43,020 bases of DNA from Escherichia phage Ptacy1537 (PQ863254.1), one strand, 5' to 3'. Counted from the first letter of the stretch, positions 5,342 through 41,680 are shown. Numbers and translations: made by a program. The notes: generated by a model from the letters alone, not told the origin.

Positions 5342-5868
5342 GACCATACAGACAGCGGAGACCGACACGGCAAACAACGTTAGGTGAGTCTCCAATGTTT
5401 GGGCCTTGCACTCGCAAGCGCTTTTGTGAAAGAGACTTTGATGTACACATTGTGGAAGTACCCAGCACAGAGGAAACTCCGGTGATGGGAAGTGGAAGGT
5501 GCTTAAGTGCGATTGCCACGAGGAACCGCGATGGGGAAGCGTAGTATAGGGACGATAACCCTTTAAAGATATCAGGCCGGGTGAGATGGTAGGTCAGTTA
5601 TAAAATCCATCGATAATAGTGTTTGGCGAGCATTCCCTCCACCGAACGGGAGAAATCGCATCCAGCGTCACTGAGCGGGACAAGTCTCAAACGTATTGGA
5701 TTAACATCTGCTCCTGAGTAGGACGGGTAACGCGGTTAGCGCATGGTGACACTGTGAAGTGGTTCGATGCAATGCTTGACGCCTACCGACGCGAAAGGGA
5801 GCGGGTTAACATATGAGTATTCAATGGTGAGTATTCATACCTTTAACCAAACGATGAGGATTTACAAA

Positions 5869-6429
5869 ATGGCTACTACCAAAACCGCTAAAGCTACCAA
5901 AACCACTTCTGATTTCGTCAAGCTGGCTATGATTCCGGCTGATTTGGATAAGGCGATTGACCGTGTGTGTGTCGCTTCCAAGACGCTGCAATCTGACATC
6001 CACGATGTGGCCGTGGCTATCATGGTTCACACCTACAACCACAACGATTTCAGCAAGGCACAGACCCTTGTCGATGGCCTGGGTGAGGGTGTGCGCCGTG
6101 GTGCTCTGGTTGAGTGGTTCCAGGCCGCAGGTCTGAAGGTAAACGCTGAGGCTGGCGCTTTCTCTGGCTTCAACAAGGCCAAGATGGAAGATAAGTGGGA
6201 TAAGGTTAAATCCACGCCGTGGTATACCATGAAGCCGGAGCGCCCGTTTGCTGGCTTTGACCTGATGGCTGAGCTTGAGCGCCTGCTGTCTAAGGCTGAG
6301 AAGGCGACTAAGAAGAACGCCGACACGCCGGAGGACCAACGTGCTGAGGGTTACACTTTTGTGTGCGATGCCGACAAGCTGGCCGCCCTGCGTGCGATGA
6401 TTCACCCGGCAACGCAGACTGTTAACTAA
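5869..6429 (+). CDS. Early hypothetical protein
   Basis: ATG at 5869 with GAGGA 8 nt upstream (chosen over the 5767 start in the ORF track). 186 aa, no recognised domain. Confidence 0.6.
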   Translation: MATTKTAKATKTTSDFVKLAMIPADLDKAIDRVCVASKTLQSDIHDVAVAIMVHTYNHNDFSKAQTLVDGLGEGVRRGALVEWFQAAGLKVNAEAGAFSGFNKAKMEDKWDKVKSTPWYTMKPERPFAGFDLMAELERLLSKAEKATKKNADTPEDQRAEGYTFVCDADKLAALRAMIHPATQTVN

Positions 6430-6490
6430 GTGCTATCCGCAAGCCTGCTCAATGAGTGGGCTTGATGACTATCACTGAGGAGTTATCACG

Positions 6491-6883
6491 ATGAGCAAAA
6501 CAAAGATTCTTACCTTCCTGCGGGAGTGGTTACAGTATTCCGACGCCTGCATGAAGGCACACAAGGCGGGCGAGGAGAAGCCGCACTCGCAGACGTTCAC
6601 GCCGTATGATGGGTTGTGTGGCAACCTCGACCGCTGGGCGCGTGCTTACGCCCGCCGGGAGCAGCTTAACTTTGATGCGGAGCGCCAATTTAACCGGGGC
6701 TTATGTACGGCGCTGAAAGACCTGTTCCGGGCCGATGGCCTGTGTACCTGTTGGACGTTCGGAGAGCGTAGCTTTAAGATGCGCTTTGACCGGGAGTCTA
6801 ACGCACGGTGCCCTAACCGCCGCCGCTGGGTGAAGAATACTATCGCACAGCTTGAGAAGGAGCTATCCGATGGCAATCACTAA
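6491..6883 (+). CDS. Early hypothetical protein, paralog family member A
   Basis: 130 aa. Shares FL(R/T)xWL...F(T/R)PY(D/T)GLC with the 7166..7489 product. Confidence 0.6.
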   Translation: MSKTKILTFLREWLQYSDACMKAHKAGEEKPHSQTFTPYDGLCGNLDRWARAYARREQLNFDAERQFNRGLCTALKDLFRADGLCTCWTFGERSFKMRFDRESNARCPNRRRWVKNTIAQLEKELSDGNH

Positions 6884-7169
6884 GATATCCTTTCTGGCCC
6901 GCTACCACACGCGGGAAATCAGGGAAGTAATACTATCCCCGTGCTGGCCTACTCTTGAGAAAGAGGTCACGGTACAGCACGATAAAGAGGCCGTGTTCGT
7001 ACTCGGGCCGGGGCCATGTGGCAAGACGGTTGACAAGCTGGATGTACGGTATCAGGAGCACGATATTGTTATCACTCAGTACCACGATGATGGTACACTT
7101 AAAGAATTTGCATACCAGCGCGAAGATGTGCTGGGTCGTATAACTATTGAGCGGAGTGTATTTCAATGA
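6870..7169 (+). CDS. Early hypothetical protein
   Basis: ATG at 6870 preceded by GAGAAGGAG. 99 aa. No recognised domain. Confidence 0.5.
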   Translation: MAITKISFLARYHTREIREVILSPCWPTLEKEVTVQHDKEAVFVLGPGPCGKTVDKLDVRYQEHDIVITQYHDDGTLKEFAYQREDVLGRITIERSVFQ

Positions 7170-7489
7170 CCAAAGAGATGAGAGAGTTTCTCACAGCGTG
7201 GCTTGATTGGGCCACGAGCGGCGACGTTAAAGACCATAAATACGGCTGTATATTCCGCCCGTATACCGGGCTGTGTGCTGCTGCGGATTACTGGACAGTA
7301 GACGATGGCCCGGCGCACTACGAACTCATTAGCGAGTTGGGTGATATGCTGGAAGCCGGTGGGTTGGCCACGGACTATCCTTTTGACACCCCGCGTAGCT
7401 ATGACGCTGCCGCAGAGGCAGGCACACAGCACCTTAACCCGGCCCGCCTGGCGTGGGTACGTGCTAAGCTGGAGGTGTCAGATGAGTGA
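7166..7489 (+). CDS. Early hypothetical protein, paralog family member B
   Basis: 107 aa. EFLTAWLDWA...FRPYTGLCAA parallels TFLREWLQYS...FTPYDGLCGN of 6491..6883. ATGA-type overlap with flanking genes. Confidence 0.6.
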   Translation: MTKEMREFLTAWLDWATSGDVKDHKYGCIFRPYTGLCAAADYWTVDDGPAHYELISELGDMLEAGGLATDYPFDTPRSYDAAAEAGTQHLNPARLAWVRAKLEVSDE

Positions 7490-7898: not shown

Positions 7899-7908
7899 GG
7901 ATATTACT

Positions 7909-8139
7909 ATGACTGTTAAGATTAAAGAACGTACCCCGGCTAAGACACTGGTTCATTTCCGCAACATAAAGCCGGGCCAGTTCTTCGTGTATTCGTCAGA
8001 ACACAGCGAGCGCAATCTGCAATTACGTACCGACACCGGTGCTGTTATCGTAGAGACCGGGGTACATGACGAGGAGGACATCTACTCTAAAGATGCGGTG
8101 TTTGAAGTTATCCGCGATGTAGATATCTTCTGGGGCTAG
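7909..8139 (+). CDS. Early hypothetical protein
   Basis: ATG at 7909 with GAGGA upstream. 76 aa. Confidence 0.5.
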   Translation: MTVKIKERTPAKTLVHFRNIKPGQFFVYSSEHSERNLQLRTDTGAVIVETGVHDEEDIYSKDAVFEVIRDVDIFWG

Positions 8140-8199
8140 TGGTTTGCCGAAGGGCCTGCACTCGCGGGCCTTTTATCAATATCACTGTGGAGTTATGAG

Positions 8200-9116: not shown

Positions 9117-9584
9117 ATGACACGCAAAACTGTATCTGAACGTCGCATGGCTGGCGCTAACAAGCAAATCGCAGAGCTGACCCAGGCGCTGCACGAGTCC
9201 CGTGAGTACGGTGAGGTTCTGGCCGCCGGTATCAAGGATAAGGATGGCTTAATCCGCCACCTCAAGACAGCCAATAACAGTCTGCGCGTTAAGCTGGCTG
9301 AGACGGACTCTGCCTTGAACGCATCTCAGGCGGACCTTCATGAGGTGACGGCAGCGGCCTCTGTAACAGCTGAGAACCGGGACTTCTATAAAGGGGCACA
9401 CGCCGTTGCAACTCGACAGCTGCGGGACATGACTAATCTGGTAGACCTGGAATACGACAGGGCAGACTCTTACCTTGCGAAGCTTAACTCAGCTGAGAAG
9501 GATGTCCTGTCATGGAAGCGTGGATTCTTTGCGCTGGTGGTTATCACAGTAATTGCACAGGTGGTGAACTATGTCTTTGGTTAA
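9117..9584 (+). CDS. Hypothetical coiled-coil protein with C-terminal transmembrane anchor
   Basis: ATG at 9117 with GAGGA upstream. 155 aa. Long helical charged region, then hydrophobic C-terminus FFALVVITVIAQVVNYVFG. Confidence 0.5.
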   Translation: MTRKTVSERRMAGANKQIAELTQALHESREYGEVLAAGIKDKDGLIRHLKTANNSLRVKLAETDSALNASQADLHEVTAAASVTAENRDFYKGAHAVATRQLRDMTNLVDLEYDRADSYLAKLNSAEKDVLSWKRGFFALVVITVIAQVVNYVFG

Positions 9585-10083
9585 CAGCCGCACCCCGAAG
9601 GCGCACCCGGATGAACAACATCAGGGTACGTACAACCTCAAGCCCGTTTCTGTGTTTATGTATGAGGAGGGGAGTCCACGGGAGACCTTCAATGCCGTCG
9701 AGGTCGGCGAACTTCTGCGTTATTACGGTGTTGATAGCGTCATGGACCTTCCTCCTCAGGAGCCTGCACTCGCAGACGCCCCAACGCACGGATTTGGTGA
9801 GCCCCGGCGCTTTGCTTCGGGTTCGCCGGGATTGCAGAACCTTCCGAAGGAGGGTGCGCGTCGGATGTCTGCCCCGGAGGCGTTCGCTGCGCCGTATGGC
9901 GTTTCCGTATCGCTGGAGCATCCATACGGGGAGGTGCGTAAGGTGGTTAAGAAGCGCGAGACCTCACAGACCGGGGTAGTGGCGTTTGATGCCACACTTC
10001 TGTTACTCAAAGGCCTGAGCACCGAGCAGGCTGACTACGTGTTCCAACTTCTGGCTGAACAGCTGGGCTACGATATCCAATAA
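9571..10083 (+). CDS. Hypothetical protein
   Basis: 170-aa ORF with coding-like composition. No recognised domain. Confidence 0.5.
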   Translation: MSLVNSRTPKAHPDEQHQGTYNLKPVSVFMYEEGSPRETFNAVEVGELLRYYGVDSVMDLPPQEPALADAPTHGFGEPRRFASGSPGLQNLPKEGARRMSAPEAFAAPYGVSVSLEHPYGEVRKVVKKRETSQTGVVAFDATLLLLKGLSTEQADYVFQLLAEQLGYDIQ

Positions 10084-11562: not shown

Positions 11563-12802
11563 TACGCTATTACTCGCCGTGCTGGCCAACCGTTCCAAGT
11601 ACAAGGCGTTGGCCAGCGCCGTACCGAAGGAGACACTCGGCGCACAGACCGGGTGGCTTCTGGATGCTTACGGCAAGTTCTTTGAGCAGAACAAGAAGAA
11701 GGAGCGTGTTGACTTTGACGTGCTCGCCACTATGGTGCGCCTCAAGCTGGATGAAACGGCGGCGGGGCCTGCACTCGCGCTAGTTGAAGCGGCGCGTAAT
11801 TCGAAGGCCAGTGAGGAGCAGGAAAAGCTGGTAATCGCGGAGCTGTACGAGCGCCGACTATCCGGCCTGGCTGCGTCACTGGTTAACCGCTATGAGGATG
11901 GTGATGATGTTGATATCTCATATGAACTTTATCGCGTCGCAATGGAAACACGGAAGCTCCTGGGTACTGCTACAGATGCTCTGTTCAAGGAGCCGGACAT
12001 CCATGAAATCCTGGCTGAGCAAGCGAGCGACACGGGTCTCAAGTTCCCGCTCCTCTGCCTACAGGAGCATGTCAAAGGACTCATGCCGCCCGTTAACGTG
12101 GCCCTGTGCGCCGGTGTCGATAGTGGGAAGACCAGCTTCATTGCCAGAACGGTGGTGCATTGGGCTCCGCAGTGCGCCAAACTATTCCCAGGACGTCCGA
12201 TTCTCTGGTTATCAAATGAGGGTGTGGTGCGTGAAATCTGGCCTCGCGTCTATGCGGCTGCTTTAGATAAGAACAGTCTCAAGATGGCAGAGCTATCCCG
12301 TGATGAGCTGTATGCTCAGTACGAGGCGGCGATGGGGGGCAACCGCTCTATCCTCAAGCTGCTGGACATTCACGGCTGGAGTATGGGTCAGGTGGCCGGG
12401 CTAGTTGAAGAGCTTAACCCCTGTGTCGTCATCCTGGACATGGTGGCTAACGTTCGATGCAGTAAGCCAGTAACGGCCCGCCACGAGATGATGGAGACCA
12501 ACCTCCAGGAGTGGCGTGAGATGCAGGCGCTGCACAACTTTATTGGCTTCTCAACTATCCAGCTGTCGGCAGACGGACTGGACCAGCTTTACCCGGCGAT
12601 GCATCACCTCAAGGATACCAAGATTGGGGCACAGGGTACGCTGGACCTCCAGATTATGATGGGCCGGTTGGATGACCCTCAGCAGCAAGGCCTGCGCGGA
12701 TTCTCTACGCCGAAGAACAAGCGTAAGAAAGTCGGCAAGCCGGGCAACTTTAACGCGCAGGTGTTCTTCACACCGGATACCTGTCACTATGAGGACGCAT
12801 AA
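11552..12802 (+). CDS. DnaB-like replicative DNA helicase (T7 gp4 helicase-domain-like)
   Basis: 416 aa. Walker A-like AGVDSGKTS and a RecA-like core. Position in the replication module. Confidence 0.65.
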   Translation: MAVDTLLLAVLANRSKYKALASAVPKETLGAQTGWLLDAYGKFFEQNKKKERVDFDVLATMVRLKLDETAAGPALALVEAARNSKASEEQEKLVIAELYERRLSGLAASLVNRYEDGDDVDISYELYRVAMETRKLLGTATDALFKEPDIHEILAEQASDTGLKFPLLCLQEHVKGLMPPVNVALCAGVDSGKTSFIARTVVHWAPQCAKLFPGRPILWLSNEGVVREIWPRVYAAALDKNSLKMAELSRDELYAQYEAAMGGNRSILKLLDIHGWSMGQVAGLVEELNPCVVILDMVANVRCSKPVTARHEMMETNLQEWREMQALHNFIGFSTIQLSADGLDQLYPAMHHLKDTKIGAQGTLDLQIMMGRLDDPQQQGLRGFSTPKNKRKKVGKPGNFNAQVFFTPDTCHYEDA

Positions 12803-14742: not shown

Positions 14743-17242
14743 CGTAGAGACAGAAACGAACCCGTGGTACGGACACCTGGCCTCCCCGTATAACCCGCTT
14801 AACTATGTGGTAATGGATGCCTTCGAGCAAGTTACCTTTGGTGGCGGTAAGGTGAGAGTCAGCCCCCGAACCGAACAACGCTTCGCTTCTGTCGAAGACT
14901 TTAAGGCCCGCTGGCCCCAGCCGTTCCCTGACAATGTGAACATCTACGTAGCGCACAACGCCGCGTACGAGATGCAGTGGCAGCTGGAACATAACTTTGA
15001 TAACTTCGTAGCGTTCCTGAAACGGGGCGGAAGGGTGTACTGTACGGCGTATGCGCACTACTTGCTAAGCAACCAGCAGGACACGTACCCGCCGCTTAAC
15101 GAAGTCGCCCCACTGTACGGCGGTACGCAGAAGGTGGATGGCGTTAAGGCACTGTGGGACGCCGGGGTGCTTACCTCTGCGATTGACCCAGAGCTGCTGA
15201 GCGAATATCTGTCCGGCCCGAATGGTGATATCGACAACACCACCCGCGTATTCCTGGGCACCTGGAACCAGCTGGTCGAACGAAACATGCTGACGATGGC
15301 GCTGGTGCGTATGGATAGCCTGCTGTATCTGGCATTCTGTATGCACTTCGGGTTGAAGGTTGACGAGGATAAGGCCCACCGCCTACAGGCGGAGAACGAG
15401 GCCGCACTCGCAGACCTTAACAAGCAGCTTTATGAATACCTGCCTTCGGATATGCCGGAAGAAGCCCGCGAGCAATTCAAGGGCACACGCTTCCAGCTTT
15501 CAGCATTCCTGTTCGGCGGCGCAATGAAGTACGAGAGTCAGGTGCCCCGCACCGATTCGACTACTGGCGAGCTGATTTACAAGAAGGCCGAAGGTCCGGT
15601 GTTCAAGTGGCTCAAGGAAACATACGTCAAAGACCCGGCGCTCTGTGAGTTCGACGAAGAGGCTGGCGGTCTGTGGTATGACCCTGAGCGCAAGGTGCAC
15701 CAGGTTCGGTACACGGCAGGTAAGAACAAGGGACAACCCAAGTTCGACAAGTACGTGACCGACGAGGTTGACACCAAGAAAGGCGAGCTGATTTACCAGT
15801 TCCGGGGTATGATTCAGGGCGCTGTGCGGGATAAGCTGCGAGATGCTATCGAGACCGAATGGGCGGGCAGTCAGAAGCTGGCCGACGGCACACCGGTAGT
15901 CTCCACCGCAGGCGACGTGCTGGAAGTCCTGGCTGCCCACGATGTCCCGGTGGCCAAGCTGCTGGACCTAATCGGCAAGATTGAGAAGGACCTGGGTGCG
16001 TTCTACCTGGTGCAGACGTTCAACAAGGATGGCTCCCTGAAGAAGCAATCAGGGATGCTTCAGTACGTGCAAGAGGATGGCTTCATCCACCACACGCTGA
16101 ACACCACATCCACGGTTACGGCCCGCCTGTCTTCTAACAAGCCGAACATGCAGCAGATACCCCGAGCTGAAGAGGCCAAGCCTGGTGACTTTAAGTCAAA
16201 GGTTAAGAGCATCTTCATATCCCGGTTTGGTGCTGACGGCGGCATACTCCAGGAGGACTACAGCGCACTGGAGACGGTTGGCCAGCAGGTAATGACTGGC
16301 GACCAGAACCTCAAAGAGGCGCTGATTAAAGGCCTGGACATGCACTCAATGCGTCTGGCTGCAATGGAGGAGTTGACGTATGAGTACGTCGTCGCCCGAA
16401 CGAAAGATGGTGCTCATCCTGAGCACGCCGAGTGGGATGTCAAGCGAACTGGTATTAAGCCTGTTGCGTTCCAGTATCAGTACGGAGCCACGTCTTACGG
16501 TATGGCCATGTCCACCGGTAAATCGCAGGACTTCTGTCAGGCGTTTATCGACGCCGAGAAGAAGGCGTTCCCAGGGGTAGAGAGCTGGTACGATAACGTG
16601 GTTTACCCGGCGGTTGAGCAGTCCTCGTTGAAGCGTAAGCCAACACGGGTACAGACAGAGGATGGCCAGTACCGACTGTACCGCACAGGGGTATTCATCG
16701 CTCCGTCTGGCACTACGTATCAATTCCAGCAGTACACCAAGCTGCGCTGGGACCCGGAGAGCCGCACTCGCAAAGAGTTCTCTGAGTTCAAAGTCCCGCA
16801 AATGCGTAACTACCCAATCCAGGGTGAGTCCGGCTTCTTCGTACAGCTGGGCTGCGGTATGCTGATTCGACACTTCATTGCCCGCGACTTCTACGGAATG
16901 AAGGCGCTGCCGATTAACACAGTGCACGATGCTAACTACTTCGACGTTCACAGAGACGTAGTGCAGCAGGTAGCCTGTGAGGTGGAAGTAATCATGGAGT
17001 CAATCCCTGAGATGCTGAACCACCTGTGGCCAGCGTACAATGTCGAAGTGCCATTCCCGGTAGCGGGTGGTTACGGCGACAGTATGGCCGAGGAGAACCC
17101 TGTGTTCTCCAGCAAGAGTAAGAAGGAAGAGCCGGAAGGCTTTAAGGCTGACAAGGCCGCCTGGGTGGTACGGAAGAATCAGTTTAAGACTGACTATCTG
17201 GCCGCTAAGAATATCCAAGTTAAATTCCCATGCACTCAATAA
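14717..17242 (+). CDS. DNA polymerase, family A (T7 gp5-like) with 3'-5' exonuclease domain
   Basis: Start taken at ATG 14717 (MSLIALVHDVETE, exo I-like DxE). Pol A motif A DYSALE. 841 aa. The ORF-track start at 14561 overlaps the upstream gene. Confidence 0.85.
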   Translation: MSLIALVHDVETETNPWYGHLASPYNPLNYVVMDAFEQVTFGGGKVRVSPRTEQRFASVEDFKARWPQPFPDNVNIYVAHNAAYEMQWQLEHNFDNFVAFLKRGGRVYCTAYAHYLLSNQQDTYPPLNEVAPLYGGTQKVDGVKALWDAGVLTSAIDPELLSEYLSGPNGDIDNTTRVFLGTWNQLVERNMLTMALVRMDSLLYLAFCMHFGLKVDEDKAHRLQAENEAALADLNKQLYEYLPSDMPEEAREQFKGTRFQLSAFLFGGAMKYESQVPRTDSTTGELIYKKAEGPVFKWLKETYVKDPALCEFDEEAGGLWYDPERKVHQVRYTAGKNKGQPKFDKYVTDEVDTKKGELIYQFRGMIQGAVRDKLRDAIETEWAGSQKLADGTPVVSTAGDVLEVLAAHDVPVAKLLDLIGKIEKDLGAFYLVQTFNKDGSLKKQSGMLQYVQEDGFIHHTLNTTSTVTARLSSNKPNMQQIPRAEEAKPGDFKSKVKSIFISRFGADGGILQEDYSALETVGQQVMTGDQNLKEALIKGLDMHSMRLAAMEELTYEYVVARTKDGAHPEHAEWDVKRTGIKPVAFQYQYGATSYGMAMSTGKSQDFCQAFIDAEKKAFPGVESWYDNVVYPAVEQSSLKRKPTRVQTEDGQYRLYRTGVFIAPSGTTYQFQQYTKLRWDPESRTRKEFSEFKVPQMRNYPIQGESGFFVQLGCGMLIRHFIARDFYGMKALPINTVHDANYFDVHRDVVQQVACEVEVIMESIPEMLNHLWPAYNVEVPFPVAGGYGDSMAEENPVFSSKSKKEEPEGFKADKAAWVVRKNQFKTDYLAAKNIQVKFPCTQ

Positions 17243-22282: not shown

Positions 22283-24778
22283 GTGGCTACACTCGCAGAC
22301 CAATTGGCGTTTGAAATCAAGCACCGCGACCTCGGCCGTGAACGTATGGCGGCTATTATCCAGTCAGCTGGGGAGCAGGGTAGATTGACAGACACGCCGT
22401 TGGGTACGGGTGTGCTCCGTCGATACCTGCAACGCCTCTCTGAAACCATCTCACTGGACATCACTGAGGAGCTGGGCGTACCGGGCCGCTCTAAGCAGTA
22501 CGCTGTATTGCTGAAGAACATGGACCCGGACGTACTGGCCCTGGTGTCTCTGGATACCGTCATCGAACATCTTGAGATGAGCGATGAGGAGGAGGATTCA
22601 GTACCCCTGGGTAGTATGGCATCTGCGATTGGCCGGGCTATTCACAGTGAGATTATCTTGACGGAGTTCAAGGACATATCGCCGGACTTATACGAGGTAC
22701 TGACTAACAGCCTCAAGTCGCGAATGAGCAAGAACCTCCGGCACAAGATGGCAGTGTACAAGATGCAGGCCGCTGAGCAAGGTCTGGTTCTGCCAGAGTG
22801 GACGACGGCACAGCGTGCACAGGTCGGCTCATACCTCATCGGTCTGCTGATTAACATGGGTGTGCTGGAACAGTTCACACGTTGGATTAAGCGCAAGTCC
22901 GTATACTGTGTCTCGCTGGGTACGGATGTGGTCGAATTGATGGAGGCCATCAGGGAGCGCGTAATTGAGCGCTCAGGCTTCGCAGCACCCTGCCTAATAC
23001 CACCGGAACCCTGGACCGGAGAAGAGGGCGTAGGGGGCTTCCACGGAGCTCTGAAGCTACGTGCCCCTCGCTTCTTCAAAGGAACATCCGAGCAGCTGGA
23101 GATAATGCAGACGGAAGGGTGTGACCTGACCACCACCCTGGCCGCGTTGAATTTCCAGCAGAGGGTAGCATGGAAAGTCAACCCATTCGTGCATAAGCTG
23201 GCCCTGTTAATGCTCCAGTACCGCTACGAGTTGAAGAAGTCAATCACTTCGGTGGCGTACTACCCGAAGCCTGACAGGCCCGAGTGGCTCGACCTCTGCG
23301 ACGATATGTCCAAGATATCGCCGAGGCAGAAGGAAGAGTTCGACAAGTGGAAGCTGGCCACCCGAGACTGGCACACAGAGAACAAGAAACGTGCCCGCAT
23401 TGAGGTGCGTATGCGCTTGGCCCTGGCAGCTGCGCGGGACTTCGGTGAGCTTGAGCGCTTCTACTTCGTATGCCAGGCAGATGACCGGGGCCGGGAATAC
23501 TTCTGCTCCGGGCCGCTTAACCCGCAGGGAAGTGACCTACAGAAAGCCCTGCTGCACTCCGCAGTAGGTGGGCCTGTAGACACTCCAGAGGCTGTGTTCT
23601 GGTTTAAGCTAAACATCGCCACGAAGTATGGCATTGACAAACTGGCTCCGGCCGACTGTATAAAATGGGTGGATGATAACCATGACAACATTATCTCGGC
23701 GGCGGCTGACCCTCTTAATCGCGAAGCATTTGACTGGTGGGCACAGGCCGATAAGCCGCTACAGTTTATCGCGGTGTGCGACGAGTATCGCCGTTGGGTT
23801 GAAGACCCTGTGGGTTTTGAGGCTCGAATCGCAGTCTCTATGGACGGGACGTGTAACGGCCTTCAGAACTATTCCGCGCTACTTAGGGACCCCATTGGTG
23901 GACGCGCTACGAATCTCATTAGCGCCGAATCTGGAATACCTAATGACATATACGGTGACGTGGCCCTCGCCGCTTTTAAGAGGCTCGAAGCTGACGTGGG
24001 CGGAATTTACAGACCCGGCTGGCTACTACACGGATTCAACCGAAAGCTGACGAAGCCGTCGGTCATGACCCAGGTGTACGGCTCGACGTTCGGTACGTGT
24101 CGCAAGTCCATTGTGTCGTACTGTGTAGAGCGGGCGCTGTTTGAGGATGAGCAGTATGAGCACGCTGATTACGCTGCACGTCTGGTCTGGGAAGGGATTG
24201 GAGATGTTGTTGTTGCAGCACGGGAATGTATGGAGTGGCTACGCAAGTGTGCCGGACTCATTATGGCTGAGGGTGCTGAGTTCATATCCTGGCCTGCTCC
24301 TTCGGGATTCAGGGTAGTCCAGGTGTACCGCAAGCCAAAGCTGGTGCAGGTAAGGGCGCACATCGGCAAGAGTGTGTCATATGCAATCCAGGTGGCGGTG
24401 GATGACACCGACGACCAGGACAAGATTCGACACCGAAATGCCTTCCCACCCAATTTCATCCACAGCGTCGACGCAAGCCACTTAGCAATGGTGGCTGTGG
24501 GTATGGGTTCCCTACATGAACAGATGCGCTTAGAGGGCCGCCTATCGAAGATTTGGGCTAATGAAAGTGTGTTCCTGCACTTCATCCATGACGACTTCGG
24601 TGCATTGCCACATATGGCGGCTGACTTGGCACGCATAATTCGTGAGAAGTTTGTTGAAATGCACGAGAATTATGACATTGAGTCTATCAGAAAGGACTAC
24701 TGGTTCCTCCCAGAATCTCCGAAGAAAGGCTCATTAGATATTCGTTGTGTACTCGACAGTATTAACTTCTTCCGTTGA
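22283..24778 (+). CDS. Single-subunit DNA-dependent RNA polymerase (T7 RNAP-like)
   Basis: 831 aa. GTG start with AAGGAG 6 nt upstream. C-terminal region has the T7 RNAP-type motif IHDDFG and the palm-domain FIHSVDASH. Confidence 0.9.
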   Translation: MATLADQLAFEIKHRDLGRERMAAIIQSAGEQGRLTDTPLGTGVLRRYLQRLSETISLDITEELGVPGRSKQYAVLLKNMDPDVLALVSLDTVIEHLEMSDEEEDSVPLGSMASAIGRAIHSEIILTEFKDISPDLYEVLTNSLKSRMSKNLRHKMAVYKMQAAEQGLVLPEWTTAQRAQVGSYLIGLLINMGVLEQFTRWIKRKSVYCVSLGTDVVELMEAIRERVIERSGFAAPCLIPPEPWTGEEGVGGFHGALKLRAPRFFKGTSEQLEIMQTEGCDLTTTLAALNFQQRVAWKVNPFVHKLALLMLQYRYELKKSITSVAYYPKPDRPEWLDLCDDMSKISPRQKEEFDKWKLATRDWHTENKKRARIEVRMRLALAAARDFGELERFYFVCQADDRGREYFCSGPLNPQGSDLQKALLHSAVGGPVDTPEAVFWFKLNIATKYGIDKLAPADCIKWVDDNHDNIISAAADPLNREAFDWWAQADKPLQFIAVCDEYRRWVEDPVGFEARIAVSMDGTCNGLQNYSALLRDPIGGRATNLISAESGIPNDIYGDVALAAFKRLEADVGGIYRPGWLLHGFNRKLTKPSVMTQVYGSTFGTCRKSIVSYCVERALFEDEQYEHADYAARLVWEGIGDVVVAARECMEWLRKCAGLIMAEGAEFISWPAPSGFRVVQVYRKPKLVQVRAHIGKSVSYAIQVAVDDTDDQDKIRHRNAFPPNFIHSVDASHLAMVAVGMGSLHEQMRLEGRLSKIWANESVFLHFIHDDFGALPHMAADLARIIREKFVEMHENYDIESIRKDYWFLPESPKKGSLDIRCVLDSINFFR

Positions 24779-24870
24779 TTCGTAATACTCTATGTACGGC
24801 TGACGATTAGTCAGACGATATACAGTGTTATATTATGTGTTATTAAGTGAGTATAATTAATTAATAATCT

Positions 24871-24895
24871 GATTAGTTATACTCTAAGAACACTG
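24871..24895 (+). promoter_or_regulatory. Candidate phage RNA polymerase promoter (copy 1 of a 25-nt consensus)
   Basis: CTGATTAGTTATACTCTAAGAACAC. Shares the core TATACTCTAAGAACAC (CATACTCTAAGAACAC in the third copy) with 28186-28210 and 39376-39400. Lies 12 nt upstream of a gene start in an intergenic gap. Confidence 0.6.
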
Positions 24896-27393: not shown

Positions 27394-28175
27394 TGCTTTT
27401 CATGAATATCGCACGTAAGTTTGGCGCAGTGTACCAGGAAGAAGCAAGCCCGGAAGCAGGTTCCCCGGCAGCGGTAGCCCCTAGTGAACCAGCGGCCCCC
27501 GCAGCGGCTGCAACGCCAGCGGCACCTGCAACACCAGAAGCAGCGGCTACGGGTTCGGTAGACTATGCAGGCGTTATCTCTGAGTACGCCGAGGGCAAGC
27601 CTGCACTCGCAGTAGCTTTAGGGTTCCTTGGTGAGTGCGGTATCGACCACACCGGCCAGGCATTCGAACTGGCTAAGGGTGGTGACTTTACCTTACTGGA
27701 AGCTGAGCTGGCCAAGCTGGGTAAATCCGGTACTGCTGAGATGGTTGCCATCCTCAAGCAGGAAGTTGAGGCCAACGACAAAGCGGCACAGGAGCACGCA
27801 GCGCAAACGGAGCAGACCTTAACCAACATCCTCGGCGAGAGCAAGGACGTAATTCTGGAGTGGGCCCGCAGCGGTGCCACTGAGCAGGAGAAGTCGGCTA
27901 TCAACGAGATGCTGGACGCGGGCGGCTTCTATGCGCACTGTGCAGCTATCGCACTCCGAGAAGCGTACCAGGGCTCAAATGCCACCATCCCGGCTAAGAA
28001 CCCGATTACCAGCTCGGCGGCGGTACAGGGCGCTGCAACGGCCCTGTCGGCACGTGAGTTTGCCGCAGAATGTGAGAAGTTGTCCCGTGCTAACGGTGGC
28101 GTGGACCCGCGAGGTTTGCCAGGTTATGCACAGCTTCAGACTCGCCGTGCGGTAGGTCGTAAGCAGGGTATCTGA
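27393..28175 (+). CDS. Scaffolding protein (T7 gp9-like)
   Basis: 260 aa. Acidic, A/P/E-rich N-terminus and helical composition. Called by synteny between portal and capsid. Confidence 0.6.
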   Translation: MLFMNIARKFGAVYQEEASPEAGSPAAVAPSEPAAPAAAATPAAPATPEAAATGSVDYAGVISEYAEGKPALAVALGFLGECGIDHTGQAFELAKGGDFTLLEAELAKLGKSGTAEMVAILKQEVEANDKAAQEHAAQTEQTLTNILGESKDVILEWARSGATEQEKSAINEMLDAGGFYAHCAAIALREAYQGSNATIPAKNPITSSAAVQGAATALSAREFAAECEKLSRANGGVDPRGLPGYAQLQTRRAVGRKQGI

Positions 28176-28185: not shown

Positions 28186-28210
28186 TTGATTCGCTATACT
28201 CTAAGAACAC
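28186..28210 (+). promoter_or_regulatory. Candidate phage RNA polymerase promoter (copy 2) upstream of the capsid gene
   Basis: TTGATTCGCTATACTCTAAGAACAC, 45 nt upstream of the capsid ATG. Same consensus as copies 1 and 3. Confidence 0.65.
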
Positions 28211-29349: not shown

Positions 29350-29934
29350 ATGATTGATGAACTGAACGTTGTAAACGCTTGTCTCGGCTCTATCGGTGAA
29401 CTTCCTGTAGTAGAGCTGACAGATGACCATCCCCTGATTGGTGGCTGACGCCCTAGTCCAGGTGACGCCCTAGTCCAGGAGAGTCATATCAAGTGGTGGT
29501 TCAACACGGATTGGGAAACCCTCCGCGTAGCTAACGACCACTTCATCTACACACCGGCAGATGCTGTGTCGGTGTACCCATACCGCAGACCGGACCTGAT
29601 TCAGAGGGGCCGCCGCCTGTGGGACCGTATTAACTCCACGTACGAGATGCAGGGGCCAGTGCTCTCCATCATTGTGCGTAATCTGCCGCTGGAGGACTTG
29701 CCTCCGCAGGTGGCCTTGCTGGTTAAGTATGCCGCCGTGCAACTATTCCAGCAGGACTATGACGCCGACGAAGCGAAGAAGGCCGACGTGGCCAGAGCAT
29801 ACCAGAAGGCGTTTATAACCTGCAACGCAGAACATGCACGACAGGTCCAGCTCAATGGGCTTGAGACCCTGTTCACCGGACGTGAGCGTGGCAGACTGCG
29901 ACCACGTCAATCCTCTGGAATCCCTGTGAGGTGA
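29350..29934 (+). CDS. Tail tubular protein A (T7 gp11-like), interrupted by an in-frame TGA at 29446-29448
   Basis: ATG at 29350 encodes MIDELNVVNACLGSIGELPVVELTDD, matching the T7 gp11 N-terminus. The frame hits TGA at codon 33 and then stays open in the same frame to 29934 (the ORF-track 29566..29934 ORF). Total 194 codons, against 196 for T7 gp11. Confidence 0.6.
29446..29479 (+). repeat. Perfect 17-bp tandem direct repeat (TGACGCCCTAGTCCAGG x2)
   Basis: Copy 1 at 29446-29462 and copy 2 at 29463-29479 are identical. Copy 1 begins with the in-frame TGA of the tail tubular A gene. Confidence 0.9.
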
Positions 29935-32519: not shown

Positions 32520-33299
32520 ATGGTTTGGGCTCAGATTGCAATGGGTGCTATGAACGCCTTAACTGGTAAGTCTGCAAAGGCTTCCCAGATGAAGGTGGCA
32601 AAGGCCCAGCTCGCTCTTGACCAAGGGCGAGCCAATAATAAAATGCAGATTCAGGTTGCCAACAACTTGCTATCTGCGGCGCAGGCAGAAGTCACCCGAA
32701 GTAACCAGGCTCGCCAGAACCGTAAGGTAATGGAGAACATGGAGAAAGGGTTGGAACAGAATGCCTTCAACCTCGGCAAGCAAATGGACGGGCTTGCTTC
32801 TAACAAGTTCTCCGCACGTCTCCAGGGTGCGGGAGCTTTGGGTACGTTGGCCGCTTCGGCGGCCTCTGCTGGAGTGGGTGGTGCCTCTGTGGATGCACTG
32901 GCCAGTACGGAGATGTTCCGCCAGGAGCTCGCAGACCAGGCAGTAGATAAGCAGGCTAAGGATGCCAGCTATGTTGCCAGTCTGAATAACAGTGCCCTGG
33001 TAGACAACGCGTACAATAACCTTGATGATTCCTATGTGTTCGCCAGCTTCGACTACAGCCCGCGTGACTTTGTAATGGACACGACGGCACAGTATAAGTG
33101 GGGCCTTGGTAATGCAGTCTCCGACTTCGCACAGGGCTTCTCCGGCAACATGAATCAGATGGGTATGAACCTTCAGGATGCAGGCTATAAAGGCGACACA
33201 TCGTTGGCGCAGGCCGGTAGCAACGCCTGGAGTGGATTGAAGAGCGGTGCCTCCAAGCTATTTGGTGGCGGTAATGCAGGTGCGACTTCGAGGTTATAA
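32520..33299 (+). CDS. Internal virion protein (T7 gp13/gp14-like position)
   Basis: ATG at 32520 one nt after the gp12 stop. 259 aa, A/G/N-rich. Called by synteny only. Confidence 0.5.
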   Translation: MVWAQIAMGAMNALTGKSAKASQMKVAKAQLALDQGRANNKMQIQVANNLLSAAQAEVTRSNQARQNRKVMENMEKGLEQNAFNLGKQMDGLASNKFSARLQGAGALGTLAASAASAGVGGASVDALASTEMFRQELADQAVDKQAKDASYVASLNNSALVDNAYNNLDDSYVFASFDYSPRDFVMDTTAQYKWGLGNAVSDFAQGFSGNMNQMGMNLQDAGYKGDTSLAQAGSNAWSGLKSGASKLFGGGNAGATSRL

Positions 33300-35527
33300 T
33301 GGCAGAAACTCCAGTGGTACAGGCTCCTGGGAAGGGGCCTATCCTTCCACAGCCATCTCCGGTACAGGTTCAGGTCCCACTGGCCAGCCAGGTGGCACAG
33401 TCCGGCGTACGTCCAACGGAAGCTCGCTTCAGCGTAGGCGGCTCTAATGGGCGTGAGTCTATGGACATGCTGAATAACATCCGGGCGGAAACCCTCCGCT
33501 CGCTGTCAGCATTCTCCCCGTTAATCGCAGAGAAGTTAAAGCAGGCCCAGGAAGATGAGTTCGCCAATGGCTACATGCGCCAACTTCAAGGTGAGACGGT
33601 TGACGACATTCGGGCTGAGCAGCCCCTGGGCGGCTTCTTTGGTGACGGCAGTGCGGTTCGTGGCGCACAGGCACGGCAGGCCGAGACTGCTGGCCAATCC
33701 ATGTTGCAGTACATCCAGCAGAACCAGGGCGACTTGTCGCGTATGGACCTGGAGTCACAGCGGCGGGCGATTGGTGCCTACGTTGAGGGGTTGAAGACCG
33801 GAGACCCTTCCAGCGACTTAATGATTGCACAGGGCGTCATGAAGATGATGCCTGCTGTGCTGGATAATCTGGCCCGTACTTCGGAGTCAGAGAACCAACG
33901 ACAGGCCCAGGTGCAGCAGGCAGATGCTATGGCCGCAGCGGGCGACAGTCTGCGTTATGCGGAGAGCGCCTTCCGTACCGGGCAGATGGGTGAGACGGCG
34001 TACAACCAGGTCAAGGCCAACTATATTCAGATGGCCGGACCGCTGCCGGGGCAAACTAACGCAAGCTACCGGGCTGCACTCACAGGCCAAATCATGCAGC
34101 TGTCTAAGGATGGCAGTCATGAGATGGCAAATCTCCTGTACGACAACCTCCTTCACGGGCAACTCACCGCCGACGAGCGGTTGCAGATGGAAGGTCAGAT
34201 TAAAGCCAGCAGAGCAGAGTGGCTACTGAACAACCCAACCGCGTACGACTTCACTGAATATCGTGCGACGTTAGGTAGTCAGATTGACGGTGGGCGATAC
34301 TCCACCCAGGCCGAGCTCGAAGCAGATATCGACCGCCAGAACGCAGACTATAAAGCCCAGACGGGTTCCCTGGTTCCACTCATTGACAACAAAGAGAAGG
34401 GCCGCGCAGTATCAAGCTGGCTGGATTACAAGCAGCGTGCAGACGCCGCTAACCAGAAGCTGATGACTGCGGAGATGGACGAGGCCGCTAAGATGGGCCT
34501 GTTCAAAGAGGGGTATGCTAAAGGCAGTCCGAGCCAGATGCAAATGAGCGGCCTGGACAGCAAGCAGAAGTACGCAGTGGAAGCCACCGAGGCTGGCCGC
34601 TTTATGGAAGGTTCGGAAGCCTCTGCACGTGTTCTGGGACGCTTAGCTTCGAATGGATACACCAACCCTGTAATTACCGAGCAAATCGGCAATACTATGG
34701 GAATCCTACGAGGAGGTGGTATCCCGAAGGCTGAGACTCTACAGCAGTTGCAGCAGATTTACGGACAGCTTAAAGCGACCCCTTATGGTGCCGCCGCCAC
34801 GGATGCATACTTCAAAGAGGACTTGCCGCTGATTGAGCGTATGGCCGGAATGGATATGACAGACAAGTCAAACGTCCAAGCTGTGCGTGAGATGGCCAAC
34901 GCCAACCGTACTACTGTCACGGTGCCAAAGGATGTGCAGACCGCAGCAGCTGAGCTTGTCGATGACGAGCTCAAGCCCGGTGTGTTCAGCCGCTGGTTCG
35001 GTGATGGTATTGAGTTAGGTGTCGGCTATGAGGCCCAGCTCAAGGATGAGATGAAGAAGCACGCTGGTGAGATTATGGCGCAATCGCCTAACGCCAACCA
35101 GAAGAACGTGCTGGAGATGGCCAAAGCACGGACACTGCGTAGCAAGGACATCGCCGGGAATATGCTCATCACAGGCAGCAGGCCAGGGCAGTTCGTATCC
35201 GCCGTAAACCAGCATCTCAACATCAAGGTATCCGACCCAAAAGATACCAGAATTAACACGTTCATCACTGACGCTGTAAAGCCGAAGATGCCGAACGGCC
35301 AATCCTTCAACGTAGGTTCGGTGGCTATGCTTCCCAACGGGGAGTCAGTAGTCGTTACTGTAACCCGTGCGAATGGCGGCAACCAGAGCCTGGTGCTCAG
35401 TCTGAAAGATATCGCCGATATCCAGAACAACAAGCGCCAGGATTATACCCGCAAATACCGTGACGCTATGAGTAAGGTGCACCCTGACCCATACGTGCTC
35501 TCCGGTATGGAACGTCCTGAGGAATAG
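33299..35527 (+). CDS. Internal virion protein (T7 gp15-like)
   Basis: 742 aa (T7 gp15 is about 747 aa). Predicted largely helical. Called by synteny. Confidence 0.6.
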   Translation: MAETPVVQAPGKGPILPQPSPVQVQVPLASQVAQSGVRPTEARFSVGGSNGRESMDMLNNIRAETLRSLSAFSPLIAEKLKQAQEDEFANGYMRQLQGETVDDIRAEQPLGGFFGDGSAVRGAQARQAETAGQSMLQYIQQNQGDLSRMDLESQRRAIGAYVEGLKTGDPSSDLMIAQGVMKMMPAVLDNLARTSESENQRQAQVQQADAMAAAGDSLRYAESAFRTGQMGETAYNQVKANYIQMAGPLPGQTNASYRAALTGQIMQLSKDGSHEMANLLYDNLLHGQLTADERLQMEGQIKASRAEWLLNNPTAYDFTEYRATLGSQIDGGRYSTQAELEADIDRQNADYKAQTGSLVPLIDNKEKGRAVSSWLDYKQRADAANQKLMTAEMDEAAKMGLFKEGYAKGSPSQMQMSGLDSKQKYAVEATEAGRFMEGSEASARVLGRLASNGYTNPVITEQIGNTMGILRGGGIPKAETLQQLQQIYGQLKATPYGAAATDAYFKEDLPLIERMAGMDMTDKSNVQAVREMANANRTTVTVPKDVQTAAAELVDDELKPGVFSRWFGDGIELGVGYEAQLKDEMKKHAGEIMAQSPNANQKNVLEMAKARTLRSKDIAGNMLITGSRPGQFVSAVNQHLNIKVSDPKDTRINTFITDAVKPKMPNGQSFNVGSVAMLPNGESVVVTVTRANGGNQSLVLSLKDIADIQNNKRQDYTRKYRDAMSKVHPDPYVLSGMERPEE

Positions 35528-39358: not shown

Positions 39359-39375
39359 TATATAGCCAGGGAAGG

Positions 39376-39400
39376 CTGATTCGTCATACTCTAAGAACAC
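39376..39400 (+). promoter_or_regulatory. Candidate phage RNA polymerase promoter (copy 3) upstream of the tail fibre gene
   Basis: CTGATTCGTCATACTCTAAGAACAC, 25 nt upstream of the tail fibre ATG. Confidence 0.65.
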
Positions 39401-39424
39401 TACACGAACCAATGAGGCTCCGCG

Positions 39425-41680
39425 ATGGACAAGTCTACCCTTGAATGGATGACGTCGGATTCTACAGAACCAGATTACCTTACTATGGTTACGTACACTG
39501 CCGACGGCACTACGGACCAATACGAGTTTAACTTCCCAGGTGGCTACCTGAACAAGGCGGACATTAAAGCGTACATGTTCGACCCAGCAGGCGTTGTCCG
39601 TACGGACCTTACTGTAGCGTTCATTGCTGACAACATTGTTAAGCTGACCCCGGAACAGGCGGCCGGTAACTTAGTCACCATCTACCGCGACACTCCAAAA
39701 GAGCTGCCGCTGGTTAGCTTTACCGACGGCGCTATGATTGAGGCTCGCAACCTTGACCGTAACGCAAAGCAGTGTATCTTCGCCGTCGCTGAAATCCTGG
39801 ACAAGTACAATATCGTGTACAGCCAGGTAGAGCTGGCGGAGCGATATGCAACTATTGCCCGAGACGCGGCGGATACCGCAACAACCCAGGCCGAGTTCGT
39901 CGCCTACATTTACGAGCGGTTTAAGATTACCGACGAGATGATGGCGGAGATTAACCGTGCACGTGATGACGCGCAGTTTGCAGCAGGCCGGTCCGAGCAG
40001 GCCCAAGACGCCGCTGAGCGTGCGCGTGATGCAACGGAAGCTCTGGCCACAAGTGCTGGAATCTTCCAGTCTATTGCAGCGGGCCTTGCAGGCACCTCCA
40101 CCGGCCAATACTTCACGGTAGGGCAGGGTGTGGATTCCGAGACGGCTGCCATCACGTACCTGAACGACAACGGTACGGCTGTGCCTGTATTCAAGACGGC
40201 GGGTACTCAGGCGTATGTAAACCTGAATAAGAGGTTTATGGACGTATTCCTGGAAGGCACCTACGGTAACGCACTCGCCGGTTTCGTGGATGACGAGGAC
40301 AACTCGCCGCTGTTTATCGACGACAAGGGCGAGGTCGTAATCAATGACATCAACTTCCTGAAACAGGTGCAGGACATCATTAACGAATTGGTAGCAATTC
40401 GTAACGTGTTCATCTCTGAATCAGACAGCTACATCCAGAAGGGTGGATTCATGGATGATGAAGGCAAGCTGCCTATCTACTTCGACGAGAAGGGTGATGT
40501 GTGGCTGGGAGATGGCCCGGTTAACCTGACTCAGTTCGTAAAAGAGGGCGACCCCGTTCTGGCTAACCGCGTGCTGGCTTTAGAAACTCAGTATGCACGC
40601 CTGAATGATAAGTTCTTCGAGGCGGATTCAGACTACAGCCAGGTAGCAGGCTTCGTTGATGATGAAGGCAAGCTGCCCCTGTATGTGGACAAGTTTGGTG
40701 ATGTTTGGATTGGCGCAGGTCCGGTTAACCTTAGCGAGTTCGTTAAGAGCGGCGGCGGCATTCCTTCTGAAGAGTTCACTGCATTGAAGGCGCAGGTGGC
40801 CAACCACGAGCGTGCCATCTATGGAACGGGCAACATCGTCTGCGAAGGCGATTCCCTGACTGCCGGTGCCGGTGCGGTATCCCGTACTGGTTATGTAGAG
40901 CGCCTTCGTGCCCGCCTACAGTCCCAGGGCATTGTGGTGACTAAGCGTGCAGTCGGAGGCACGGGCTCTGCATCCATCGCAACCCGACAGGGTGGTTATG
41001 TTAACCTGCTGACGCTGGAGAATAACAGCATCCCAGCTGCCCGCGTCCCGGTTAATATCCTGTCCAGTACGCAAACACCAATCACCAACCAAGGCGGTGG
41101 CCCTATCAAGGGTACTATAATGGGTATTCCTGGTGTAGTTGCTGCTACCTTCTCGGGAACTGAGCGTACCTCCTACACCTTCACTCGCGACGTGGCAGGC
41201 ACCGTGGCCACCTACGTGGACCCGGAGACCCCGTTCATCAAACAGCGGGATGGTATGGAGGGCGACATCGCTATCCTGTGGCCGGGCCGCAACGACACAT
41301 GGCGCACCGATATGGGTGACGAGGTAATGAATGCGGTTGACGCGATGGTGGCTCACCTGGTATCCCAGCGTAAGCAGTTCGTCGTAATGTCCGTGCTCAA
41401 CGGTGAGTATGTTAACGAGTACAAAGGCGGGCCAGTATACGACCGCATCCTGGGCTATAACAACCGCCTCAAGTATAAGTACCCGGAGCAGTATTGCGAG
41501 ATTCGTAATGTCCTGGTACGTGCATACGACCCAAGCAAACCGCAGGACGTGCTAGACTTCCAGCATGATATCCCACCAGCCAGCCTGCGTGCGGACGGCA
41601 TTCACCTGCTGGACCCTGGCTACGACATCGTTGAAGAGACTGTGTATACCCATCTCAAGAACAGAGGATTAGTTAAATAA
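39425..41680 (+). CDS. Tail fibre protein: T7 gp17-like N-terminal adaptor domain, three internal repeats, C-terminal SGNH/GDSL hydrolase domain
   Basis: N-terminus (LVSFTDGAMIEARNLD) parallels T7 gp17 (LVDFTDGSILRAYDLN). Three 68-aa repeats (GF(V/M)DDEGKLP...GDVW(I/L)G.GPVNL..FVK). C-terminal IVCEGDSLTAGAG ... DGIHL matches the SGNH esterase catalytic Ser block and Asp-x-x-His block. Confidence 0.75.
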   Translation: MDKSTLEWMTSDSTEPDYLTMVTYTADGTTDQYEFNFPGGYLNKADIKAYMFDPAGVVRTDLTVAFIADNIVKLTPEQAAGNLVTIYRDTPKELPLVSFTDGAMIEARNLDRNAKQCIFAVAEILDKYNIVYSQVELAERYATIARDAADTATTQAEFVAYIYERFKITDEMMAEINRARDDAQFAAGRSEQAQDAAERARDATEALATSAGIFQSIAAGLAGTSTGQYFTVGQGVDSETAAITYLNDNGTAVPVFKTAGTQAYVNLNKRFMDVFLEGTYGNALAGFVDDEDNSPLFIDDKGEVVINDINFLKQVQDIINELVAIRNVFISESDSYIQKGGFMDDEGKLPIYFDEKGDVWLGDGPVNLTQFVKEGDPVLANRVLALETQYARLNDKFFEADSDYSQVAGFVDDEGKLPLYVDKFGDVWIGAGPVNLSEFVKSGGGIPSEEFTALKAQVANHERAIYGTGNIVCEGDSLTAGAGAVSRTGYVERLRARLQSQGIVVTKRAVGGTGSASIATRQGGYVNLLTLENNSIPAARVPVNILSSTQTPITNQGGGPIKGTIMGIPGVVAATFSGTERTSYTFTRDVAGTVATYVDPETPFIKQRDGMEGDIAILWPGRNDTWRTDMGDEVMNAVDAMVAHLVSQRKQFVVMSVLNGEYVNEYKGGPVYDRILGYNNRLKYKYPEQYCEIRNVLVRAYDPSKPQDVLDFQHDIPPASLRADGIHLLDPGYDIVEETVYTHLKNRGLVK

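Follow-up and report, generated by a model that had tools for sequence, protein, structure and literature searches.

The genome of Escherichia phage Ptacy1537 (PQ863254.1) raises the question of what reads a short sequence, GCACTCGC, that is scattered along only one of its strands. The window analyzed here is the whole stretch of 43,020 bp, the complete, circularly permuted genome of a podovirus of the Autographiviridae (subfamily Melnykvirinae), which opens within the large terminase gene and carries all of its genes on the + strand. One of its proteins is 100% identical to an nr entry titled 'MAG: hypothetical protein [Bacteriophage sp.]', and the sequence is therefore taken to have been assembled from a metagenome. 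An initial annotation had described this octamer as an over-represented, strand-specific nucleic-acid signal and had proposed a nick site, a Chi-like recombination hotspot or a binding or processing site for a phage protein as its possible meanings. The observation is genuine and more extensive than had been stated. It is best explained by a recognition sequence that acts in cis and is read, on one strand, by a factor specific to the Melnykvirinae. By analogy with other phages we tentatively place first, among the more specific meanings, the reading that the sequence marks strand-specific nick sites in virion DNA; a transcription-linked signal is a close rival, and a binding or processing site for a phage protein is still a live option.

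Counted over the whole genome on both strands, GCACTCGC occurs nine times on the + strand and not at all on the - strand, so that all nine coordinates of the initial annotation, and the missing reverse complement, are borne out. The 11-mers CCTGCACTCGC (exact at 8155, 9763, 11768 and 27600) and CACTCGCAGAC (exact at 6584, 9767, 15405 and 22290) also lie where they had been placed, as does the near-match CCTGCACTCAC at 4714; the other near-match, CCTGCACTGGC, starts at 3831 and not at 3829. An order-3 Markov model predicts 0.81 copies of the octamer on the + strand, and dinucleotide shuffles predict 2.63 on both strands together, none of 100 shuffles reaching nine. Synonymous-codon shuffles that keep the protein sequences give a mean of 2.84, and none of 2,000 reaches the observed count; because this mean includes two intergenic copies that such shuffles do not move, the coding expectation is about 0.8, as compared with seven copies observed. 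The over-representation thus exceeds shuffled, Markov and codon-aware backgrounds, and in an unsupervised ranking of the 8-mers and 10-mers of Ptacy1537 the k-mers of the motif come out at the top.

The closest kin of Ptacy1537 are the Klebsiella phages K59PH2, KYP, 6937, GP-4, Y10 and Kpn1-P3 (~87% identity), and its remoter kin are GAP227-like Melnykvirinae phages of Cronobacter, Yersinia, Pectobacterium, Salmonella and Aeromonas. We compared Ptacy1537 with the six Klebsiella-phage genomes (the Klebsiella clade), with a set of eight divergent, genera-level genomes (Ptacy1537 itself, GAP227, phi80-18, Ahp1, ISAO8, Arno160, Sty003 [39.5% G+C] and Atoyac10) and with three outgroups, namely KP34 (which has a Klebsiella host but belongs to another subfamily), LIMElight and phiKMV. 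The motif is common to the Klebsiella-phage relatives and the other Melnykvirinae. Alignment of the copies from the eight divergent genomes identifies the 12-mer CTGCACTYRCAG as the core of a longer motif of about 21 nucleotides (nt), SS-CTGCACTYRCAG-a-n-S-n-WWW, with G/C at positions -2 and -1, A at +1, G/C at +3 and A/T at +5 to +7 (at +5, W = 0.91, P = 2e-14). This makes the signal asymmetric, with the 12-mer and its conserved flanks, rather than the octamer, as the functional unit. Across the eight genomes the 12-mer with no or one mismatch is found 66 times in the forward and three times in the reverse orientation, and GCACTYRCA 60 times forward and three times reverse.

Purifying selection acts on the motif at the level of nucleotides. 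The six Klebsiella-phage genomes have eight of the nine GCACTCGC sites at matching positions, and within this clade only 4 of 120 alignment columns vary in the 12-nt cores, as compared with 127 of 600 in the flanks; at third codon positions the figures are 1 of 32 and 63 of 160 (P = 2e-5). The claim of the initial annotation that copies fall in all three reading frames is literally true of Ptacy1537, but across the subfamily the coding copies are strongly frame-biased: 40 of 52 are read x-Ala-Leu-Ala/Thr-x, 11 are of the Leu-His-Ser-Gln type and one is in the third frame. This bias is an accommodation to the motif and not its cause, because 28 of the 115 Ala-Leu-Ala tripeptides in the eight genomes are spelled GCA-CTY-GCA, as compared with 2.08 expected from codon usage (P = 3e-22). 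The frame itself changes within the DNA polymerase gene. Ptacy1537 and Ahp1 encode the motif as Ala-Leu-Ala-Asp/Glu (in Ahp1 as CTGCACTTGCAG; PMC5014404, Table 3), whereas in GAP227, phi80-18 and Arno160 the copy is shifted by about 14 nt in the protein alignment and lies in the Leu-His-Ser-Gln frame. In Atoyac10 a copy overwrites a conserved N-terminal peptide, SPLHSQNY replacing SPYCPDNY. Synonymous shuffles, third-position invariance, frame changes and Ala-Leu-Ala codon choice together uphold the view that this is a strand-specific nucleic-acid signal and no protein motif. Sites also turn over: ISAO8 and Atoyac10 carry copies at differing positions, and most genomes hold about 7-12 good copies while positions are gained and lost. 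The Salmonella phage Sty003 keeps mainly the right half of the motif, CACTCGCA. Copy number and a left-biased spread appear to count more than the identity of individual sites.

The left bias was measured from the physical left end of each genome, for the 66 copies with no or one mismatch. Counts per genome decile are 16, 17, 7, 6, 5, 10, 0, 4, 1 and 0 (Kolmogorov-Smirnov P = 3e-7), and the copies are thus concentrated in the part of the genome that enters the cell first. Of these copies 79% lie inside open reading frames (ORFs), with no fixed relation to gene ends; measured to the next gene start, the distance of the copies has a median of 261 nt and is no more than 100 nt for 27% of them.

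In Ptacy1537 itself, exact or one-mismatch copies of the 12-mer begin at 4715, 6581, 8156, 9764, 15402, 22287, 27601 and 34074, copies with two mismatches that are nevertheless conserved at 5406, 11769 and 16762, and a separate copy lies in the terminal repeat at 4266, all on the + strand; those at 34074 and 4266 lie beyond the nine octamer sites of the initial annotation, as do the full 12-mers at 4715 and 22287. Because of homology with GP-4, for which a 584-bp terminal repeat is annotated, we place the physical left end of Ptacy1537 near 3750 and a collapsed repeat at ~3750-4330. The terminal-repeat copy, GTGCACTCACAT (4266..4277), has two mismatches to CTGCACTYRCAG; GTGCACTCACAG stands at the same place in all six Klebsiella-phage relatives and, in GP-4, in both annotated copies of the repeat (532 and 43635). 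The leader upstream of the first gene (gene 1, 4928-5299) contains an exact intergenic copy, CTGCACTCACAG (4715..4726), the right half of which is kept in the Klebsiella-phage relatives. The next intergenic copy, TTGCACTCGCAA (5406..5417), forms a hairpin of 5+2 bp followed by TTTT in Ptacy1537; at this position the relatives have CCGCACTCGCAG amid unrelated flanks without a hairpin, so that the motif was retained although the surrounding DNA was replaced. Inside the ORF at 6491-6883, the copy CCGCACTCGCAG (6581..6592) is read Pro-His-Ser-Gln, and its core GCACTCGCA is invariant in five relatives even though two of them have a different upstream flank; K59PH2 has a C at position 12 of the 12-mer. 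The copy CTGCACTCGCGG (8156..8167) forms the apex of an early intrinsic terminator, discussed below.

Farther into the genome the copies lie in genes. The exact copy CTGCACTCGCAG (9764..9775) lies in the ORF at 9571-10083, in an Ala-Leu-Ala-Asp frame, and relatives keep its core despite indels in the flanks. In the DNA helicase gene, the core of CTGCACTCGCGC (11769..11780) is invariant in 6/6 relatives while the flanks vary. The DNA polymerase gene carries two copies, CCGCACTCGCAG (15402..15413; Ala-Ala-Leu-Ala-Asp, invariant in relatives) and CCGCACTCGCAA (16762..16773; Arg-Thr-Arg frame, invariant in 6/6 relatives), and CTACACTCGCAG (22287..22298), invariant in six relatives, occupies codons 2-5 of the RNA polymerase gene. 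Among the late genes, the scaffolding protein gene contains a second exact CTGCACTCGCAG (27601..27612), in a 20-nt block that is invariant in six relatives amid flanks with many substitutions, and the internal virion protein gene (33299-35527) contains an exact CTGCACTCACAG (34074..34085) that is invariant in relatives and has a counterpart in phi80-18 at the same gene offset (GCACT core, nt 777 of g48). Two sites of the initial annotation are probably not members, although its eight other octamer sites recur in relatives. At 40271..40278 (+), in the variable tail-fibre gene, GCACTCGC stands alone without the CTG or CAG arms and without a counterpart in relatives; because both arms are missing and the site is unique to Ptacy1537, it is probably a chance match. 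The 12-mer CTGCACTGGCAG (3832..3843, +), which contains the near-match beginning at 3831, is a doubtful member: its one mismatch breaks the invariant ACTC core, and it is not conserved in relatives.

The distribution of the motif among phages bears on what kind of factor reads it. Phages of Klebsiella, Cronobacter, Yersinia, Pectobacterium and Aeromonas share it in identical form, so that it tracks phage phylogeny, and it was not found in the KP34, LIMElight or phiKMV genomes. Since it is missing from KP34, which infects the same host genus as the closest relatives of Ptacy1537, it follows the phage lineage and not the host; its absence from all three outgroups argues that the factor reading it is phage-encoded, and the absence from KP34 and LIMElight weakens a reading by a host factor. 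Among the lineage's own proteins, the product of gene 1 is a candidate under the transcription-linked reading treated below. It is very basic (about 90-120 amino acids across homologues, phrog_9286), with an invariant C-terminal signature, KTDxxxNSYxxxKxGDNLPR, and tblastn detects it in all eight Melnykvirinae genomes but not in KP34, LIMElight or phiKMV. Homologues lie at 656-958 in GAP227, 933-1283 in phi80-18 and 1181-1519 in Arno160, and, in further relatives, at 683-958 in L009, 1023-1328 in L010 and 22900-23175 in L014. The search for the reader gave no nuclease; in it, a conserved protein of 122 amino acids yielded a confident structure model with no informative structural neighbor.

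Strand-specific nicking is ranked first because verified nick motifs are the sole known class of elements with the full set of properties seen here (PMC11780129, PMC3517423). Such motifs lie on one strand in about ten copies, are mostly indifferent to gene boundaries, are conserved within a phage group and are skewed to one side of the genome (PMC11780129, PMC3517423). The Melnykvirinae motif is likewise confined to one strand, present in many copies (9:0 in Ptacy1537; 66:3 in the eight genomes) and conserved beyond overall DNA similarity. Its copies would then mark site-specific single-strand interruptions in the + strand of virion DNA, as the nick consensus sequences of T5, phiKMV and tf do. 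More speculatively, nicks in the non-template strand might serve as swivels during transcription of the left ~18 kb by host polymerase, which draws this part of the genome into the cell, or else they might be unligated start points of rightward DNA synthesis.

Several observations weigh against nicking. The known nick consensus sequences do not account for the motif: that of phiKMV has no match in Ptacy1537, that of tf has two forward and two reverse, and that of T5 is without strand bias (nine forward, eight reverse); the near-palindromic arms of the motif are without counterpart in known nick motifs. Neither Pfam nor PHROGs identifies a nickase or methyltransferase among the early, middle and lineage-specific ORFs, the only matches being a SAM lyase, a T3 gp1.05-like protein, a dNMP kinase, a phosphoesterase and families of unknown function. 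In the literature searched we found no reports of nicks or transcriptomes in Melnykvirinae; nor did we find one that names the nickase of the tf or phiKMV groups. The placement of the copies tells in the same direction. Upstream of or at the RNA polymerase gene lie 47 of the 66 copies (71%, as compared with 42% expected; P = 1e-6); 14 of the 66 are intergenic, a roughly threefold excess over the non-coding share of ~8-9% in these genomes, and these copies belong to the early region at the left end. Several genera have a copy immediately before gene 1 (for example Ahp1 658 and phi80-18 900), and one copy forms the apex of an early terminator that is conserved across genera. These four features suit a role in transcription or RNA at least as well as they suit nicking.

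A transcription-linked signal is accordingly a close rival of the nick reading, and we regard it as possible, if doubtful. A phage factor, or the polymerase itself, would recognize the motif in the nascent RNA or on the non-template strand. Such a signal would modulate elongation (by pausing, attenuation or anti-termination) over the early and middle region transcribed by host polymerase, and the gene 1 product would be a nut-like candidate factor, in keeping with its basic character and its absence from the motif-less outgroups. The terminator at 8156 is strongly folded: its stem-loop (~8149-8174, followed by TTTTAT) has a folding free energy of -20.9 kcal/mol (z = -5.0), GP-4 carries an annotated rho-independent terminator at the equivalent site, and orthologous terminators with the same ACTC loop lie at GAP227 3519, ISAO8 2794, Ahp1 4403 and Arno160 4019. 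Among the copies that were folded, a stable G+C-rich hairpin with a T/U run directly after it occurs at 8156, weakly at 5406, and at none of eight others. Also in favor is a sigma-70-like promoter (TTGACA-17-TACTAT, 5313-5341) that precedes the copy at 5406 by 65 nt.

That promoter and the motif-bearing hairpin with its T-run (5405-5425) could together specify a short non-coding transcript or an attenuator, the next gene starting 340 nt further on, at 5767; the arrangement is specific to Ptacy1537, since the relatives differ in sequence there. The best sigma-70 match of the left 8 kb (TTGACA-17-TATAGT, 11/12) lies on the - strand at 4102-4130, within the terminal repeat, and faces the genome end.

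Against a transcription-linked signal stands the bulk of the copies, which lie within ORFs and are unrelated to gene ends. The patch downstream of the motif is A/T-rich but holds no U-run. Coding copies fold no better than shuffles (z ~0) and lack flank complementarity (flank-swap z = -1.0), no covariation extends beyond the motif core across the compared copies, and an Rfam search gave no match, which together dispose of a general stable RNA hairpin; nor is there a boxB-like hairpin, because changes in the arms are uncompensated (CCGC...GCAG; ACTCACAG). The late terminator at ~29310 is without the motif, whereas late genes do contain conserved copies (27601, 34074), and we found no precedent for an elongation signal in about ten intragenic copies. 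The T7 class II pause signal ATCTGTT shows no + strand excess in Ptacy1537. The more specific form of the idea, in which the motif is a multi-copy, polar elongation-control element read by the gene-1 protein in the nascent RNA or non-template strand, as a distributed nut-like system, we consider unlikely; in this form the gene-1 protein would let host RNA polymerase pass the early terminator and traverse the ~18 kb that it has to transcribe, and so internalize, before the phage polymerase is expressed.

A replication-related polar signal, in which the motif would act in priming or initiation on the lagging-strand template, or in polar fork control, and be read by the phage primase, helicase or polymerase, is rather improbable. 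Polarity speaks for it, since rightward forks have the + strand as their lagging-strand template, as does a copy density that peaks near the left end. Replication origins of T7-type phages lie near the left end. The A/T-rich patch, in fixed register 5-7 nt downstream, resembles a melting or initiation region, and replication proteins are conserved in the subfamily and divergent in the motif-less outgroups. However, known phage primases read trinucleotides and not sequences of 12-21 nt, and the sequence features are equally compatible with nicking. The motif also bears no likeness to terminase cut sites or genome ends (GCGACC... and ...GGCGGGCTA).

We judge it very unlikely that the motif is a second promoter class of the phage RNA polymerase, as which it entered the literature: in the Ahp1 genome paper, TCCCTGCACTCGCAGAGGGT and four sequences like it appear as 'phage promoters' on the output of the repeat finder PHIRE alone (PMC5014404). 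It is true that the KP34 polymerase recognizes two unrelated promoter sequences (PMC6834552), and that a recognition block followed by an A/T patch is what a promoter might look like. However, Ptacy1537 has a clear and separate T7-like promoter, TGATTnnnnATACTCTAAGAACAC, with three forward copies, after the RNA polymerase gene (24870-24893), before the capsid gene (28187-28210) and before the tail-fibre gene (39377-39400), and one antisense copy with two mismatches near the left end (4678-4701, -), which GP-4 likewise has in antisense (core ~961). These promoters are homologous in place and form to those of phi80-18 (PMC7316996), and their layout mirrors the experimentally mapped layout of LUZ19, in which the antisense early-region promoter P001 resembles the left-end promoter of this clade (PMC10914365). 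Over six genomes, 26 T7-like promoter copies precede a gene start by a median of 45 nt, and 73% of them by no more than 100 nt; for the motif the median is 261 nt and the share 27%. Each genus examined has its own version of the promoter sequence, whereas the motif does not change from genus to genus and shows no covariation with the cognate polymerase. Sequence, position and evolutionary behavior thus separate the motif from the phage promoter, as does its placement in a terminator apex. In Ahp1, moreover, a transcript that started after the motif would lack a ribosome-binding site, because the copy lies so near gene 1. The 'phage promoters' of Ahp1 are therefore probably mis-assigned.

Among the real promoters of these phages is the antisense one at the left end in the Klebsiella-phage clade. 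In most other Melnykvirinae a + strand promoter lies just inside the left end (phi80-18 359, ISAO8 414, Arno160 507). A minus-strand copy of the phage promoter lies just downstream of the RNA polymerase gene at GAP227 19260, phi80-18 21196 and Arno160 20052; it forms a back-to-back pair with the forward late promoter, so that in these three phages the polymerase gene could be transcribed in antisense.

The Chi-like hotspot of the initial annotation, a recombination or anti-exonuclease site read by a host enzyme, is scarcely credible: an over-represented polar oligomer that occurs in all reading frames and is dense at the first-entering end does resemble one, but the enterobacterial Chi sequence GCTGGTGG is unenriched (two forward, two reverse), and the motif is missing from KP34, with its host of the same genus, while being identical across phages of five host genera. 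Finally, there is next to no chance that codon bias or a recurrent Ala-Leu-Ala peptide produced the motif, since the preference of coding copies for that frame is outweighed by the synonymous shuffles, the GCA-CTY-GCA excess, the third-position invariance, the intergenic copies and the copies in other frames.

Three further features of the genome were noted. Two other oligomers are biased to the + strand, CAGGCCCAG (seven copies: 295, 4997, 10278, 25751, 33542, 33902 and 37385), which looks like Gln-Ala-Gln coding, and GTGGCGGTAA (four copies: 14841, 17354, 30380 and 33265), which is faintly similar to ops (GGCGGTA); both are probably coding by-products. At 29441-29478, in the gene for tail tubular protein A (~29350-29934), about 21 nt of the relatives' CAGCAGCACGTAGTCGGTTGG are replaced by an out-of-register copy of the following bases, with the result that TGACGCCCTAGTCCAGG occurs twice in tandem, the length is unchanged and an in-frame TGA splits this essential gene; the duplication may reflect an error of assembly, a template-switch mutation or a defective genome.

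Site-specific nicks in phage genomes have been known since T5. If the motif does mark nicks, it provides an easily recognized new consensus in a subfamily with tractable hosts (Klebsiella, Cronobacter, Yersinia, Salmonella and Aeromonas), and thus a fresh system in which to find the nickase and the purpose of the nicks, work that would be aided by about ten copies in a left-to-right gradient under measurable selection. If it does not, then coding sequence throughout a subfamily is shaped by a polar cis-element that had not been described before.

Comparison with known systems is instructive for each of the leading readings. The nut/boxB elements of lambda resemble the motif in being small, stem-loop-like sequences of the early transcript, with a copy between the early promoters and a first gene that encodes a small basic protein, and in their link to an early terminator; unlike them, the Melnykvirinae motif shows no covariation, has uncompensated arms, is unfolded in its coding copies and occurs about ten times, mostly within genes. 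T7-like promoters, among which the Ahp1 paper files the motif, are similarly repeated, strand-specific and lineage-specific. The nick motif of tf and Rembedalsseter, WACTRTGAC, is closer: it too lies on one strand, in ~9-14 copies with a one-sided skew, and is kept across a large phage cluster with little DNA identity (about nine net copies per genome in a 61-phage cluster; PMC3517423, PMC11780129). The two differ in sequence, and tf belongs to the unrelated LUZ24-like tf/PaP3 group, which has convergent transcription; nicks in that group were verified by gels, sequencing stops and nanopore coverage.

The phiKMV-type podoviruses, in several of which nicks are documented (PMC7291057, 10.1101/619015), offer the nearest precedent. 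Their nick consensus is 5'-CGACNNNNNCCTA/CTCCGG-3' (Kulakov et al. 2009, as quoted in PMC3517423 and 10.1101/619015). Like the Melnykvirinae they belong to this family and have the phiKMV-type gene order, their nick sites lie on the gene-sense strand only, and these sites received an early 'phage promoter' label; both motifs also have an ACTC core, a G/C-rich stretch and then TTAA, a loose resemblance that we take as a lead only, because the register differs by 3 nt. The consensus is otherwise different, there are 3-4 sites per genome and not ~10, the three consensus-matching sites lie in short gaps between genes whereas most copies here are intragenic, near-palindromic arms are missing, and the nicks have been proven. 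In LIMElight, which is cited as nicked (PMC7291057), we observed an oligomer of its own, GCACAGGG(TA), with eight forward and no reverse copies, a candidate for its nick consensus. A hairpin-like repeat of the KP34-like early region, AGCCTATAGCGTCCTACGGGGCGCTATGTGAA (KP34 1487-1538 and 2508-2559), was at first called a phage promoter, and its authors suggested that it might mark nicks (PMC4411677). In phiKMV (NC_005045) the sequence CGACN5CCTACTCCGG (PMC3517423) has three + strand copies, which fall exactly at features annotated as 'putative bacteriophage specific promoter', while the true promoters of its close relative LUZ19, determined by ONT-cappable-seq, are GgtTATGTCACacACAnnGG, with near-identical motifs at matching positions in 15 other Phikmvvirus species (PMC10914365). 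The phiKMV precedent therefore fits closely, since its nick consensus was annotated as promoters while the real promoters differ, and such mis-assignment of repeats as promoters seems to be general in phiKMV-type phages.

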